This document shows, one piece after another, positions 44,365-62,410 of a stretch of DNA of 64,000 bases. Origin of the DNA: Chroococcidiopsis thermalis PCC 7203 (lineage in GTDB: Bacteria; Cyanobacteriota; Cyanobacteriia; Cyanobacteriales; Chroococcidiopsidaceae); the NCBI RefSeq assembly GCF_000317125.1, contig NC_019695.1, forward strand, positions 358,336-422,335. The letters run 5' to 3'. Position 1 is the stretch's first letter; every line of letters starts with the position of its first letter. Under the pieces are notes generated by a model. That model saw only the letters and a program-made list of their open reading frames with translations, was not told where the DNA came from and ran no database searches. The position numbers and the translations under genes are program-made.

Positions 44365-47055
44365 ATGAACACTCAAACCAAACGGCTTTATCGCCAACTG
44401 CTTGTAGCTACCTTATTAATGGGTGGCACTTTTAACATGACTGCACCTGTTTTGGCGCAGGCTGTACCGACTGCACCACTCACGGGTGCGGGAACTGAGA
44501 TCAAAAACAAAGCGACTGCTACTTATGAAGACCCCAGTAACCCTGGTACGATAAATGCAACTTCTAACGAAGTGACTATCACAGTAGCAGAGGTTGCAGG
44601 TATCGCTGTTGTTGGTTCGACACCTGTTGACAGGAACGGTAGTAGTGTCTCCAACGGAGATATTTTAGACTTCGACTTTACAATTACTAACGTCGGTAAC
44701 GATACCACTGCTATCTACATTCCAGGCAAGACAATCCTAAATACAGGAGGTCGTATTGTCGGCGGTCAAATCGGTAGTACAGCTGGAGCCAATAGCGTTT
44801 ATATCGTTAGAATTAACGGCAACACGCTGACAACTCCAGTTGCCGTTCCTGATGCTGGCGTTCAATCAGATAATGCTGCATTTATCCTAGCTATTCAAGG
44901 CGCAGGCTATGCTGCTTTTGATGGCTCGATTGATGTCAACCAAGAGATAGTAGTACGAGTTCCTGTCACAGTGACAGAAACCGTAGCAACTAATCCAATT
45001 AGCGTGCAATTCGGTAACACTGCCGATCCTGGAACGCAGAATCGCCAGAACATCCTATATGCAGCCGATGCCACTACTGATGATGATGTGCGGACTGCTG
45101 ACATATCCGAACCGGCTCCTAGAAATTTAGGTCCTGCAAATGGAGAACGGGAAGCAGCAGCATTCCAATCGATTCCTTTAGGAACGCAGGTCACTACCCG
45201 CGCTCTAGCAACTGTACTCAAGACTCGCTCTCTACATACTCCTAATACTTCAGCGCTCGATGACGACCAGATTCGTTACCGTTTAGACTTGCGCGTTGAA
45301 GGCTCCTATCCCAATGCCTCCTCCTTTGCTGTAGGTAACTTGGAAGGAACGGCTCTGGCTAACGCCATTACGGGTGCAGGCGCTCCTACTGGAGCTGTGA
45401 TTTTAGTTTCTGATGTCATTCCTACAAATACAGTTTTGGATGCTGGCTTCTTACCAACCGCACCTTCAGGCTGGACTGTAGTGTATAGTAATGACGATCC
45501 TGCGGCGGCTAACGCTACAGCCCTCAGTGCCAACTGGACAACCACTGCACCTACAAATCAGGCTCAGGCAGATTTAGTGAAGCGGATTGGTATTGTCCGT
45601 ACTGGCTCAATGACTGCTGGATCTTCTACACTTACCGATACAAATGGCTTCCAGTTCCAGGTAAGGACAGCCACGGGCTTCGCTGGTGGTCAAATCCTCA
45701 ACATTGCTCAAGCCTTCGGTCATACCCAAGGAGATAGCGATCTTAACCGGATTATCTATGATGAGTCCGGCGACCAATTCCCCAATAACTTTGAGGGTAC
45801 GACAACTCCTTACGCTGACGGTGCAGGTGGCTTCGATCCTGCTAATGATGACGGTATAGCTCTTGCTACTTACGGTAGTGACCCCAGCAACCAACCTGTA
45901 AATAACCCACAGAGTAACCTGGGTACGGGTAGTGATGGTGAAGTTAACCTACTTTCCATTGACGCACCTGGTAGCATTTTGACCGGACCTAGAGGAGTTC
46001 CAGGGGCAACAGGTCCAGGAAACTCCAATCAGACTGACTACGTGAACCAGTCAATTTCGCCGCCAGTGGGTAAAGATCCTGCCGTTGCGCTCACAAATGC
46101 AGAAACTCTCGATCTTGTTTTCAATAACACGGTCAGAAACCCCAACTCGCTTGGACTCAACAACGTAGTTCTGAAGCCAATTCCCGCTGAACAAGCCGAT
46201 TACGCAGCAGATAACACGGCTGCTAACCAGCAAGACCCCAATACTGGTTATGGTACGAATGCAACCTTACCAAATGGTACGACTGTCAAGATCGAGTATG
46301 GTGGACAATCAGCCACTTATACATGGAATGGCAGTACCTTTAGCACTACTGATACACCAATTAAAATTACTACGCTCAACGGTCAGGTCAGCCTTGACTA
46401 CACAGTAACAGTAAATCTTGGCGATGGCGCTGCTCAAAATGCTGCATATCCAGTAGCGATCGTGGCATTTGTCGATGAAGATAATAACAATGAGTTTAGC
46501 CGGAATTCAACGACTCCCACGGCTGAAAGTATCTTCAACTTGAAGGTCGATCGAACCTATACGGGTTTCGTGAAGCTGACGAAAGAAGCTCGGATTTTGG
46601 ATGATGCTGGTAATCCAATTACTGTAGATGCAACTGGTGCTGCGATCGCAGATCCTGATGGATTTACAACGAATCCAGCTAGACCTCAACCCGGTTGGAA
46701 GATCGAGTATCGGATTTCCTACGAAAACATCTCGACACCTGCTTCTACTGGTGGTAGCGGTAGCGTTCAATTAAGTGCTAGCAACTTCAAAATCTTTGAA
46801 GATGGTACTGGCGATACGACAAACCCCAGAAATGGTACTTGGGCTGCAACTACAGAACACGTACAGACAAAGGCAGTTGGTACACAGGGAACAGTCAGCT
46901 TCTACAATACGACGATCGATACGATCAATCCTGGTTCTGGCGTACCTGAAGCTTTGACGAATACTGGTTATGTCAACTTTATCGGTAGTTTAGCTCCGAA
47001 TGGTACAGCAGGAACACCACAAGGAAACTTCAAGTTCCAGCGTTTAGTGAAATAG
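44365..47055 (+). CDS. Secreted T/N/G-rich surface protein with DUF11-like (conserved repeat domain) modules
   Basis: Signal peptide ([22 protein letters not shown]); low-complexity T/N/G/A-rich beta repeats; DUF11-like segments ([16 protein letters not shown]). Confidence 0.6.
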   Translation: [896 protein letters not shown]

Positions 47056-47067
47056 CTGGAGCGAATA

Positions 47068-61400: not shown

Positions 61401-62410
61401 ACAGTGGCGATCTCGATACGGGTGCAAATGGTCTATTTAACTTTCCGATTTTAGAGAGCGCTCAGCTTTCAGGTGGTAACCTAGTCGTTAAAGGCTTTGC
61501 TCGCCCTGGCTCGAAAATAGAATTTTTTGTCAAACAACCCGACCCCTCAGGTTTTGGTGAAGGACAAGAATATCTCGTGACGTTGGTTGAAGATTCGGCA
61601 GACGATGCCGATGCGACAACTGGCACTTATACTAGTCCGTTCAATGGTCTCAACCAAGGTACTGACACCACAAACCGATTTGAATTTTCGATCCCGTTAG
61701 GCAGTCTGCCGAATACAGTCACAACCGCTGACACGCTCACTGCTACTGCTACCTGTCTCAACAGCGAAAACTGCACTAGCGCCCCAAATGGCAGTACTTC
61801 AGAATTCAGCGGTAATATTACCATTACTGGCAGCCCTCATCTATCACTCGTCAAGCGCATTACTGCCATCAATGGCGTTCCTTTTTCTGGGTTTGATGGT
61901 ACTGCTACTGACCCGAATAATAATGGCGATCTCGATGAAGATGTGAACTGGGGTTTACCGCTGGATGACTCCTTGAGAGGACAGATCGATGGCGGTTTTG
62001 TCCAACCGGGAGAAGAAGTCGAATACACGATTTACTATCTCTCTACTGGTGCGACTACAGCTCAAAATGTGTTGTTTTGCGATCGCGTTCCCGCAAATAT
62101 GAGTTTTCTTGCTACTGGGTTCGATAGCTATCCCGTGCAAGCATCTGGAGGTTTACAAGGAGTAGCACGGGGGATTCTCTGGCAATATAACGGGACGACT
62201 GAATCGTTAACAAATGTCAGCGATGGAGATACGGCAATGTATTTTCCCCCAGGAGTTGAGCCGAGTAGTGTTTATCCTAGTGTTAATTGTCAGGGTAGCA
62301 ATACCACTGGGGCGATCGTGGTTAATTTAGGCGATTTAATCAATGCGACTGCGCCTGGAATTCCTGCAAATGCCTATGGATTTGTGCGGTTTAAAGCTAA
62401 GCTCAACTAA
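58478..62410 (+). CDS. Giant secreted adhesin-like protein: DUF11 module, parallel beta-helix repeats, conserved C-terminal domain shared with the 53744 gene
   Basis: Signal peptide; T/N/G-rich sequence. DUF11-like core ([48 protein letters not shown]). PbH1-like repeats ([37 protein letters not shown]...). C-terminal ~190 aa closely similar to the C-terminus of the IS-disrupted paralog. Confidence 0.65.
   Translation: [1310 protein letters not shown]

Follow-up and report, generated by a model that had tools for sequence, protein, structure and literature searches.

A conserved cyanobacterial gene cluster with a predicted giant outer-membrane barrel is a candidate system for exporting or anchoring isopeptide-type surface proteins

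A locus of Chroococcidiopsis thermalis PCC 7203, carried on the 64,000-nucleotide stretch of contig NC_019695.1 analyzed here (the window), represents a real, widely conserved and uncharacterized cyanobacterial gene cluster, and it may well embody a hitherto undescribed mechanism by which surface proteins are exported or anchored. Our preferred explanation, held with about equal measures of confidence and doubt, is a barrel-based system exporting and/or anchoring isopeptide-type surface proteins of the CLIPPER/DUF11 family. The CLIPPER domain has been characterized (bioRxiv 10.1101/2025.04.25.650565).

Organization and conservation of the cluster

The locus comprises six co-oriented genes, here termed g1 to g6, and an IS701-family insertion sequence (IS) that splits the fifth (Table 1). 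A previous sequence-only reading had announced five genes while itself listing six, and had overlooked a seventh ORF, that of the transposase. The ORF lengths that it gave (896, 195, 520, 1388, 1024 and 1310 aa) were confirmed on the plus strand, as was an AT-rich leader of about 750 bp, which measured 756 bp with a GC fraction of about 0.38 (0.375-0.39). No Rfam family matched the leader, and promoter-like sites in it were no commoner than shuffle expectation. Read by eye without a predictor, all six N termini carry Sec-type signal peptides, suggesting that all products would cross the inner membrane by Sec. Two ATGA overlaps had been taken to indicate translational coupling. The 4-nt overlap of g3 and g4 at 49575-49578 stands, and coupling is upheld for this pair only; 47755/48016 proved to be a 257-bp gap between the g2 stop (47758) and the g3 start (48016), containing heptamer and 34-bp tandem repeats. 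A 426-bp AT-rich spacer precedes g6.

Table 1. Features of the locus in window coordinates
Feature	Coordinates	Strand	Description
Leader	43609..44364	none	756 bp, AT-rich, between divergent glycosyltransferase gene and g1 (ORF list)
g1	44365..47055	+	896 aa, secreted, T/N-rich, DUF7925 domain; All3292 ortholog
g2	47171..47758	+	195 aa, Lys-rich, signal peptide, single CLIPPER/DUF11 domain; All3291 ortholog
g2-g3 spacer tandem repeats	47758..47901	none	AATTCGG x4.6; 34-bp unit x2 (Tandem Repeats Finder)
g3	48016..49578	+	520 aa; All3290 ortholog; obligate g4 partner
g4	49575..53741	+	1388-aa outer-membrane protein (predicted barrel); All3289 ortholog
g4 Ig-like domains	50277..50861	+	aa ~235-429; two; invasin/intimin/GH2-Ig-like
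g4 beta-barrel region	50880..53474	+	aa ~436-1300; about 40 long strands (predicted)
g5 ORF as interrupted	53744-56818	+	1024 aa
g5 5' part	53744..56773	+	same gene class as Anabaena All3288; broken at 56773 by IS
IS701-family insertion sequence	56774..57981	+	transposase ORF 56850-57980
g5 3' remnant	57986..58051	+	final 21 codons and stop codon (...ATGAGTPINSYGFIRFRAKVQ*)
g6	58478..62410	+	1310-aa secreted protein
C-terminal domain (CTD) of g5	56237-56773 plus 57986-58048	+	same domain as in g6, split by IS
CTD of g6	61775..62407	+	~210 aa, at extreme protein end

The direct orthologous cluster is all3292-all3288 of Anabaena sp. PCC 7120, with the same gene order. Of the 69 cyanobacterial loci whose upstream flank reaches 6 kb or more, 68 preserve the order g1-g2-g3-g4, more than expected by chance, and g1 leads the cluster in 68 of them. 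Identity across cyanobacteria decreases from g4 (54-69%, across orders) through g3 (50-62%) and g2 (40-55%) to g1 (31-41%). Outside the cyanobacteria, in loci L005-L007 the g3/g4 genes are preceded by genes for one large and one mid-size CLIPPER protein, in this order, with a small ~170-aa protein encoded between the two; in L005 and L006, of deltaproteobacterial type, small g2 homologs with 31-36% identity hold the same operon position. The cluster as a conserved functional unit is supported.

A predicted giant barrel protein

The signal peptide of g4 is followed by a variable low-complexity region with three EFGTYVAALPIE-like repeats (aa ~30-230), and a disordered tail follows the barrel. 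The AlphaFold2 model (pLDDT 76.6, pTM 0.65, with pLDDT <50 in several conserved loops) has two Ig-like domains and then roughly 40 long strands. Inserted in the barrel region is a small beta domain (aa ~615-680), and the most conserved motifs of the family also lie in this region: YGD, GDY and DY.IDYD.GTLLFR. There are >1000 homologs, with 59-94% identity among the best 120 listed. The best fold matches were outer-membrane barrels, including SlpA (the best), SprA, ushers, SusC and TonB-dependent transporters. All were weak (TM <= 0.25), and "translocon" is therefore an analogy only. Model and fold matches agree with the earlier description of a 1388-aa protein with a signal peptide, an Ig domain and a very large predicted barrel. 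In g4, Ig domains resembling those of invasin and intimin are thus followed by what is predicted to be a very large beta-barrel of the outer membrane, not a soluble beta-sandwich array; the protein would insert in the outer membrane with these domains and a flexible linker at the periplasmic face. Pfam and NCBIfam searches of g4 gave no sign of a TonB plug or an usher, nor of chaperone, autotransporter, T9SS, PEP-CTERM or RTX features; that the cluster showed no other secretion signature in these searches speaks for the preferred explanation.

An uptake machine, with g4 as a TonB-dependent-like or porin-like importer and surface-exposed or periplasmic CLIPPER proteins capturing substrate in SusC/SusD-like fashion, seems improbable. 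It would suit the name "TonB-dependent receptor" that the NCBI pipeline gives many g4 orthologs, the SusC and transporter fold matches, the predicted FurC box upstream of all3292 (PMC10406281), and the CarboxypepD_reg-like domains present in distant homologs, as ahead of SusC-type barrels. The transporter fold matches are partial, however, with 200-260 of 1081 residues aligned, and TonB-dependent transporters have 22 strands versus about 40 here. Moreover, no Plug (PF07715), TonB_dep_Rec or TonB-box was matched by Pfam at E <= 0.01, g4 falls in no NCBIfam family, and the cluster has no TonB/ExbBD or binding-protein genes.

Least probable of the explanations considered is a divergent member of a known family, be it chaperone-usher, Bacteroidota type V pilus, type V autotransporter/two-partner secretion or sortase pilus. 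The order of large, small and mid-size subunits and then a barrel does recall usher operons, and ushers are among the fold matches. Nevertheless, the cluster lacks PapD-like chaperone, Usher and Fimbrial Pfam signatures, its subunits are complete CnaA-type (CLIPPER) domains, and the usher barrels of FimD/PapC have 24 strands. Type V secretion is resembled in that invasin/intimin-like Ig domains adjoin the barrel, and other phyla fuse a long N-terminal repeat "passenger" to a C-terminal barrel where cyanobacteria split them, a variation that parallels types Va and Vb. Yet the g4 barrel is about three times larger, no Autotransporter, IAT_beta, POTRA/ShlB or TPS domain was matched in the cluster, and some homologs have an OmpA domain separating the "passenger-proximal" module from the barrel, which argues for a periplasmic position of that module. 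Strand numbers in these families are 12, 16 or 24. A match of g5 above cutoff to TIGR04226, the isopeptide domain of the RrgB pilin, also favors a known family, but Pfam and NCBIfam found no sortase, and direct reading found no LPXTG motif or membrane anchor at the C termini and no lipobox cysteine at predicted cleavage sites. Nor were there S-layer, RTX, T1SS or T5SS signatures that would make these simply S-layer or hemolysin-type proteins with an established secretion route.

An analogy to an export apparatus is offered by the T9SS, in which a giant single-chain barrel, SprA, serves Sec-exported variable cargo sharing a C-terminal beta-sandwich domain. The SprA barrel has 36 strands, and SprA is among the g4 fold matches. 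However, neither g4 nor the CTD of g5/g6 has sequence homology to SprA or T9SS CTDs (no TIGR04183 match), the T9SS CTD spans ~80 aa versus about 210 aa, no PDB fold matched the g5/g6 CTD, and no PorU/V/K/L/M-like genes lie in the cluster. The cluster also occurs in phyla not known for T9SS.

g3, a partner of the barrel

The N-terminal half of g3 has no domain assignment; CLIPPER/DUF11 (aa 268-390) and SdrD_B/CarboxypepD_reg-like (aa 417-483) domains follow. The window protein matches DUF11 in Pfam, as had been proposed, with SdrD_B below cutoff; among 41 g3 homologs, both DUF11 and SdrD_B were found in 41/41 (Pfam, E <= 0.05). K272, D306 and N377 are invariant and, by position, may correspond to an isopeptide triad. 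Of 73 cyanobacterial loci, 56 retain the ATGA overlap with g4. Single polypeptides that join g3-like and g4-like parts, in the order CLIPPER repeats, g3-like CLIPPER/SdrD_B module, Ig, barrel, occur in Smithella and further Syntrophales, in Nitrospirota and Lentisphaerae, and in Alphaproteobacteria (Hyphomonas). Because of the conserved overlap and these natural fusions, we propose that synthesis of g3 is coupled to that of g4 at a fixed stoichiometry and that g3 would bind the g4 N-terminal region as a periplasmic adaptor or base. Among distant homologs, a peptidoglycan-binding OmpA domain either separates the g3-like module from the barrel, follows the barrel, or is encoded next to it in the operon. 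The insertions suggest a periplasmic location for the g3 module and g4 Ig domains, not one in an external fiber.

Since the OmpA-domain variants indicate that N-terminal modules lie in the periplasm, all CLIPPER proteins could be periplasmic. A structural envelope complex is a possible, though less probable, alternative to export. In that case g4, much like Deinococcus SlpA or OmpA, would serve as an abundant anchor in the outer membrane, and the Ig domains, g3, g2 and perhaps larger CLIPPER proteins would form isopeptide-stabilized struts linking the outer membrane to peptidoglycan or shaping envelope architecture, much as in the outer-membrane complex of chlamydial OmcB, a DUF11 protein. SlpA of Deinococcus radiodurans, the best fold match, is a 30-strand barrel connecting outer membrane and cell wall. 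The OmpA domains of distant homologs and their operon neighbors, a weak Chlam_OMP6 match in one fused homolog, and conservation of g4 that is unusual for an outer-membrane protein point the same way. All3289 (1289 aa) was also once labeled "OmpA-like", a classification that later authors doubted (PMC9705863). Against this, g4 in the window has no SLH or OmpA domain by Pfam and no coiled coil, its TM-score to SlpA is only about 0.23, and it has dedicated operon partners. The 1400-2500 aa N-terminal to the barrel in some fused homologs seem long for the periplasm, given general envelope dimensions, and the downstream giants are hypervariable, with beta-helix and adhesin-like composition unexpected of periplasmic struts.

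Presumed cargo and accessory proteins

g1 is T/N-rich (T 12.9%, N 8.7%), as described earlier, but its domain is DUF7925 (PF25546, 178 bits, aa 281-476); neither DUF11 nor TIGR01451 matched in Pfam/NCBIfam searches. The single DUF11 domain of g2 was upheld by TIGR01451 (38.6 bits versus a cutoff of 24). g2 (K 10.3%) is small, basic and conserved even in other phyla and, speculatively, may be an accessory subunit acting as adaptor, plug or cap; its portrayal as small-subunit-like is unsupported, as is polymerization into a fiber.

g5 has a variable N-terminal region, three CLIPPER/DUF11 stretches, a DUF7927/RrgB-D2-like domain and the start of the CTD. g6 has an N-terminal region without assignment, CLIPPER/DUF11, SdrD_B (below cutoff), a right-handed Beta_helix (NosD-like) and the CTD. 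Thus, of two giants said to combine DUF11 with beta-helix repeats, both have DUF11 and only g6 the helix, and their paralogy extends only to the CTD and one DUF11 module, the N-terminal parts being unrelated. By tblastn, 66 loci have one to three CTD-bearing genes, in every case downstream of g4; none was found within 10 kb in some loci of Moorena, Symploca and Microcoleus. The CTD, aligned for 48 sequences, is conserved while the N-terminal parts are hypervariable. AlphaFold2 models the CTD as a beta-sandwich (pLDDT 87.6, pTM 0.85), for which Foldseek found nothing similar in the PDB at E < 0.07. In our preferred explanation, the CTD would be a docking or retention element at the barrel or in its lumen, beside g3. 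It is not common to g1 (hhalign probability 9%); therefore g1, if cargo, must dock differently.

The presumed cargo is T/N-rich and K/R/E-poor. This composition, the CLIPPER, DUF7927 and RrgB-D2-type stalk domains, and the hypervariable N-terminal parts make it look surface-exposed. Fibrillar adhesins and Gram-positive pilins (CLIPPER/DUF11, CnaA/CnaB, RrgB) are resembled in the CLIPPER domains of g2, g3, g5 and g6, the RrgB D2 match of g5, and the subthreshold SdrD_B of g3 and g6. Unlike them, the cyanobacterial proteins have no sortase, LPXTG, T1SS or OmpA-type anchor; a giant barrel dedicated to the task apparently takes over the anchoring.

We found no characterized cyanobacterial system of this layout, in line with the sequence-only reading; published remarks are confined to the OmpA-like label, the FurC box and exoproteome listings. 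Two independent exoproteomes of Anabaena list All3288 (g5 class), and one, from 2024, lists All3292 (g1 class); All3289, All3290 and All3291 appear in neither (PMC10957091 S1/S2 Tables). Oliveira 2015 reported none of All3288-All3292. Detection outside the cell accords with the large proteins being secreted or surface-located and speaks against a structural complex, although the 347-protein list also holds porins and cytoplasmic proteins (PMC10957091) and vesicles or lysis could be the source. With these Anabaena orthologs as the evidence for an outside location, g1 and g5/g6 would be cargo reaching the exterior in a g4-dependent manner.

In the window, g5 is inactivated or truncated by the IS, leaving g6 as the intact cargo gene. 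The IS, 1208 bp long and single-copy within the window, carries 16-nt inverted repeats, and its 4-bp target site, CAAT, is duplicated (56770-56773 and 57982-57985). Its transposase is of the IS701/IS4-type DDE class (Pfam DDE_Tnp_1 and DDE_5; NCBIfam IS701 and IS4 models below cutoffs). Joining 53744-56773 to 57986-58051 restores a 1031-aa ORF whose final 210 aa can be aligned with g6 over their full length, with 53% identity.

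Organization of the locus

The six co-oriented genes at 44365-62410, here termed g1 to g6, were all present as long ORFs, as the sequence-only reading had listed them, but that list had missed a seventh ORF encoding a DDE transposase. The AT-rich leader of ~750 bp that it described was also borne out, with the spacer upstream of g1 measuring 756 bp at a GC content of ~0.38. Of two ATGA overlaps taken to indicate translational coupling, only that of g3 and g4 at 49575-49578 exists in the cluster; g2 and g3 are separated by a 257-bp gap with tandem repeats, and g4 and g5 by 2 nt. 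The g2-g3 spacer repeats occupy 47758-47901, consist of 4.6 copies of AATTCGG and two copies of a 34-bp unit, and are similar to the STRR repeats of cyanobacteria. HIP1-like GCGATCGC sites recur often in the spacers. All six predicted proteins begin with a basic stretch, a hydrophobic stretch and an A-x-A-like site, read here as putative Sec signal peptides. An Rfam scan of leader and cluster found no family, and promoter and terminator scans gave nothing above shuffle expectation.

Open reading frames of the cluster and its inserted element
Feature	Position	Strand	Product
g1	44365-47055	+	896 aa ORF
g2	47171-47758	+	195 aa ORF
g3	48016-49578	+	520 aa ORF
g4	49575-53741	+	1388 aa ORF
g5	53744-56818	+	1024 aa ORF as read (IS-interrupted)
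Transposase ORF	56850-57980		DDE type; inside 1208-bp IS 56774-57981
g6	58478-62410	+	1310 aa ORF

The transposase matches Pfam DDE_Tnp_1 and DDE_5, with sub-cutoff matches to the NCBIfam IS701 and IS4 models. It lies in an IS701-family element that has terminal inverted repeats of 16 nt and is flanked by a duplicated CAAT target. The element has one copy in the window, and none of the 87 loci compared contains it. It sits 21 codons before the g5 stop, and g5 as read ends in 14 foreign residues in place of its own end, thus lacking the last strands of the conserved C-terminal domain (CTD, ~210 aa) it shares with g6. In silico excision (53744-56773 joined to 57986-58051) restores a g5 of 1031 aa, the last 210 residues of which match g6 up to its extreme end with 53% identity. 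The g6 gene is intact and has its own upstream spacer of 426 bp; in the closest relative locus (L044), a single g6-like gene follows g4.

Domains of the putative surface proteins

The DUF11 domain, renamed CLIPPER by Pfam, is CnaA-like, contains an intramolecular Lys-Asn isopeptide bond and is typical of fibrillar-adhesin stalks (bioRxiv 10.1101/2025.04.25.650565). When membership was judged by PF01345 or TIGR01451 above the curated cutoff, g2, g3, g5 and g6 belonged to the family and g1 did not. TIGR01451 scores were 38.6 bits for g2, 61.8 for g3, 99.1 for g5 and 75.5 for g6, against a cutoff of 24. The description of g1 as a DUF11 protein was therefore unsupported: neither DUF11 nor TIGR01451 matched it in Pfam and NCBIfam searches, and it carries DUF7925 instead (178 bits, Pfam). 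In g5, DUF11 matches in three stretches and is joined by DUF7927 and, above cutoff, by the RrgB isopeptide domain TIGR04226, and g6 combines DUF11 with a sub-cutoff SdrD_B match and a right-handed beta-helix (Beta_helix, NosD). In composition g1, g5 and g6 are rich in T, N and G and poor in K, R and E, while g2, with its single TIGR01451 repeat, is Lys-rich. Sequence searches of the PDB with g1, g4, g5 and g6 returned nothing meaningful.

The g3 protein pairs a DUF11 domain with an SdrD_B/CarboxypepD_reg-like domain, both found in 41 of 41 cyanobacterial homologues tested. Across the 41 sequences K272, D306 and N377 are invariant, falling in the first-strand, 'v.D.lP' and last-strand motifs, respectively, and may form a Lys-Asp-Asn isopeptide triad. 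By reading of the g2 sequence, the Asp position of the triad is Gln (LTQPIP). The N-terminal half of g3 had no Pfam match in the 41 homologues; an impression that it was CnaB-like rested on pattern only and was dropped.

An alignment of 48 CTD sequences showed conserved motifs, including a terminal SYGFVRF...VK. AlphaFold2 modelled the domain as a beta-sandwich (pLDDT 87.6, pTM 0.85) with no significant Foldseek match in the PDB, and searching proteins with the CTD yielded mainly short fragments. Downstream of g4, a gene ending in this domain was found in 66 loci, usually once and sometimes two or three times. The C-terminal domain of g1 was rejected as a version of the CTD (hhalign probability 9%); g1 has a different conserved one.

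A giant predicted outer-membrane barrel

The g4 protein matches Porin_4 (38.9 bits versus a cutoff of 27) and DUF2490 in Pfam, with sub-threshold Invasin_D3/Big_1-like Ig matches; no NCBIfam family matched. We modelled residues 230-1310 with AlphaFold2 from an alignment of 53 cyanobacterial and distant homologues (mean pLDDT 76.6, pTM 0.65). The model has two Ig-like sandwiches at aa ~235-429 (pLDDT about 90), followed to aa ~1300 by ~40 long beta-strands, a count taken from the DSSP string alone, with a small beta domain as an insert. The most conserved motifs of the family lie in several loops that were modelled with low confidence. Outer-membrane barrels were the best fold matches, but these were partial (TM <= 0.25), and therefore no solved structure is a close relative. 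The conserved region ends in ...GLTVKLNELF. With its signal peptide and aromatic C-terminal strand end, g4 has the predicted attributes of an outer-membrane beta-barrel protein, with a presumably closed barrel. The proposal that the 1388-aa protein is a large barrel is thus strengthened, and the soluble beta-sandwich array that would have contradicted it did not appear. For comparison, the largest solved barrel, SprA of the type IX system, has 36 strands, so that the type IX translocon is smaller than the barrel predicted here. A superfamily of predicted 38- and 40-strand barrels has been described (Solan et al. 2021, PMC8346858), and g4 may belong to its families 002/003.

The N-terminal linker of g4 (49660-50260, aa ~30-230) is variable and carries three copies of a EFGTYVAALPIE-like motif. 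In P0004, a relative, the linker has five or more FGNYLASLPIELS-like copies, and other orthologues have unrelated P/Q/E/T-rich repeats.

Conservation and fused homologues

The closest g4 relatives come from Chroococcidiopsis sp. FACHB-1243 (97%) and a Chroococcidiopsis MAG (94%). More than 1000 homologues were found, the best 120 listed being 59-94% identical and spanning Nostocales, Chroococcidiopsidales, Leptolyngbyales and Oscillatoriales. The search patterns were matched by 314 species-representative genomes. Hundreds of species, filamentous and colonial, have the cluster, among them Anabaena PCC 7120 and T. variabilis, which serve as genetic models. Among cyanobacterial loci whose upstream sequence extended over 6 kb or more, 68 of 69 kept the order g1-g2-g3-g4. 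The 4-nt g3/g4 overlap was retained in 56 of 73 loci, and median identities in cyanobacterial loci fell from 64% for g4 through 56% for g3 and 46% for g2 to 35% for g1. Flanking genes differ between genomes, and so the cluster itself is the unit. Leptolyngbya sp. AN10 has two full g1-g4 copies on different contigs (L066, L071), each with a downstream CTD gene. Six loci of Symploca, Moorena and Microcoleus (L056, L072, L076-L079) encode a g3 of ~820-880 aa versus the usual ~520 aa, with no CTD-bearing gene within 10 kb downstream of g4, which suggests a variant layout in Oscillatoriales.

An exhaustive search returned 2409 clusters (at 50% identity) with E <= 1e-3. Second-tier homologues, 23-31% identical across the whole Ig-plus-barrel region, derive from Smithella and other Syntrophales, Syntrophorhabdaceae, Nitrospirota, Lentisphaerae, Hyphomonas, Gallionella, Acidobacteria and others. 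Their usual architecture, in 1600-1750 aa, is a signal peptide, one or more CLIPPER repeats, a CLIPPER/SdrD_B module that is the homologue of residues 254-519 in g3, then a linker, Ig domains and the barrel. Thus, g3 and g4 form one polypeptide in these organisms, a natural fusion that independently links the two cyanobacterial genes, themselves translationally coupled. In split non-cyanobacterial loci the upstream gene overlaps the barrel gene by 4 nt (L007) or 17 nt (L005). The order of split operons mirrors the cyanobacterial one: a large CLIPPER/DUF7927 protein, a ~170-aa g2 relative, a mid-size CLIPPER protein, then g3/g4.

Comparison with known secretion and pilus systems

The locus had been likened to chaperone-usher or type V pilus systems, but these usher and pilus specifics found no support. 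The chaperone-usher, type V secretion, type IX, type I and sortase systems were each rejected on their defining features. Ushers are 24-strand barrels with a plug, whereas the g4 model has ~40 strands, no Usher-family match (PF00577, PF13954/PF13953) at E <= 0.01, and generic fold matches to FimD/PapC at a TM of about 0.2. No PapD_N/C or Fimbrial domain occurs in the seven window ORFs (Pfam, NCBIfam) or in the orthologous loci. The 12- or 16-strand translocators of type V (Va/Vb/Ve) are likewise without counterpart, there being no match to Autotransporter PF03797, IAT_beta PF11924 or ShlB/POTRA; for type IX, neither a TIGR04183-type cargo CTD nor a homologue of the SprA/Sov translocon was found. 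Type I cargo has no signal peptide at its N-terminus, whereas all the cluster proteins have signal-peptide-like N-termini, and none matched the RTX domain HemolysinCabind. The possibility that these are simply S-layer or hemolysin-type proteins using type I or type V secretion, raised with the original proposal, accordingly lost ground, as no HemolysinCabind or type V domain matched. Type I systems also have ABC/MFP/TolC genes next to the cargo gene; a nearby membrane-fusion gene (39978-41480) was rejected as a type I component, being on the opposite strand, within a glycosyltransferase cluster and not syntenic in other genomes; the upstream glycosyltransferase and HlyD-like genes were rejected as members of the system because they too lie on the opposite strand and lack synteny elsewhere. 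A fold-level likeness to sortase-assembled pili is present (CLIPPER, TIGR04226), but the C-termini (...FRFKAKLN, ...FQRLVK, ...YQVKVK) have no LPXTG or hydrophobic tail and the cluster has no sortase gene. Pfam and NCBIfam revealed no PEP-CTERM/exosortase signatures.

TonB-dependent receptors combine a 22-strand barrel (PF00593) with a plug (PF07715), and g4, with its ~40 strands, matches neither. A TonB-like or SusC-like importer, in which the barrel would serve uptake, is therefore very improbable, its defining domains being absent. Many g4 orthologues are named 'TonB-dependent receptor' in NCBI with no detectable plug or TonB-dependent barrel signature; the name is for that reason unsupported and likely a propagating annotation artefact.

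What ushers, autotransporters and the type IX system share with the cluster is logic only: export by Sec, a single large barrel, cargo of Ig fold and a C-terminal domain that is conserved. The cluster fits no family of secretion systems or pili described so far: the kinds of its parts are known, but their combination and the barrel size are undescribed in the literature searched. What stands of the sequence-only reading is its core, an uncharacterised, outer-membrane-centred cluster of surface-protein genes, which is real and far beyond chance despite several errors in its description.

The Anabaena cluster and exoproteome data

Orthologues are ABA24544-48 in T. variabilis and BAB74987-91 in Anabaena PCC 7120. 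BAB74988 is the 1289-aa All3289, whose earlier 'OmpA-like' label has been doubted (PMC9705863), and hence the Anabaena cluster runs from all3292 (g1) to all3288 (g5). The pairing of g1 with all3292 is a probable one, drawn from consecutive accessions and conserved synteny. We found no functional paper on all3288-all3292 or on cyanobacterial DUF11 clusters.

All3288 and All3292 are among the 347 proteins of an Anabaena SWATH exoproteome (PMC10957091 S1/S2 Tables), and All3288 is also one of the 42 exoproteins of Hahn et al. 2014 (comparison table, PMC10957091). All3289, All3290 and All3291 are in none of three exoproteome sets (PMC10957091 S1/S2 Tables). Neither the exoproteome of Oliveira 2015 nor the supplements of the FurC paper contain the cluster proteins. 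These exoproteomes, the sole experimental evidence, place g1-class and g5-class proteins outside Anabaena cells at least in part, with the qualification that the 347-protein list also holds porins and cytoplasmic proteins (PMC10957091).

Topology and proposed function

Several g4 homologues carry an OmpA domain, which binds peptidoglycan. It lies between the g3-like module and the Ig-barrel part in P0379 and P0408, after the barrel in P0367 and at the N-terminus in P0431, and one operon encodes a separate OmpA protein. Read most simply, these placements would have the periplasm faced by both termini of the barrel, by the Ig domains and by the g3 module. The OmpA insertions, together with a SlpA match and the high conservation of g4, also speak for a structural envelope complex of the SlpA/OmpA/OmcB type. 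We regard such a complex as unlikely though well worth keeping in mind, since it sits poorly with the exoproteome data and with giants that are hypervariable and bear beta-helices.

An all-periplasmic topology conflicts with the extracellular g1- and g5-class proteins and with the N-terminal length of some fused homologues, which have 1400-2500 aa N-terminal to the barrel region. By estimate from general envelope dimensions, this is long for a periplasm. The two could be reconciled if the C-terminal end of an exported stalk were held at or inside the barrel, next to the periplasmic g3 module. In fusions the C-terminal end of the stalk runs covalently into the N-terminal end of the g3-like module, and in cyanobacteria the variable giants bear a conserved domain at the extreme C-terminus. 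We consider the chances evenly balanced that the cluster encodes an apparatus, centred on the barrel, that exports and/or anchors surface proteins of the CLIPPER type; g4 would be its component in the outer membrane and g3 the partner of g4 in the periplasm, with g2 as accessory subunit and g1, g5 and g6 as cargo. More tentatively, and with doubt prevailing, it may be the cyanobacterial form of an unrecognised outer-membrane export and anchoring pathway, in effect a new type of secretion or surface-display system, with a ~40-strand barrel, a periplasmic CLIPPER/SdrD_B adaptor in g3, CTD docking and isopeptide-stabilised fibres held in the barrel, occurring fused or split across Cyanobacteria, Syntrophales and other Desulfobacterota, Nitrospirota, Lentisphaerae and some Proteobacteria.

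To our knowledge, cyanobacteria are without most classical outer-membrane secretion systems except TolC-dependent and pilus-related routes, and the passage of large proteins across their outer membrane is poorly understood. Confirmation of a barrel-based apparatus would establish a new surface-display route in several diderm phyla, assign a role to a barrel that ranks among the largest predicted for outer membranes, and explain how CLIPPER-type fibrillar proteins are anchored in bacteria without sortase. The cluster is a directly testable candidate for the movement of large proteins across the cyanobacterial outer membrane.

Other features of the window

A 347-aa reverse transcriptase followed by a 528-aa SPFH/Band-7 protein lies at 29377-32794, with no long direct repeats near it. 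Retron RT models were the best matches (St85 family, 224.5 bits versus a cutoff of 235; Ec67; TIR anti-phage RT), and the pair is possibly a retron-type defence unit. A divergent envelope-glycan cluster on the minus strand (32896-43608), not syntenic with the DUF11 cluster in other genomes, encodes GT2, GT4, an RND/ABC-type membrane-fusion protein, a TPR protein, a 1101-aa PMT_2-like glycosyltransferase and an LPG_synthase_TM protein. Just downstream of the DUF11 cluster, overlapping ORFs of W/R runs and G runs at 63314-63600 indicate a simple-sequence repeat.
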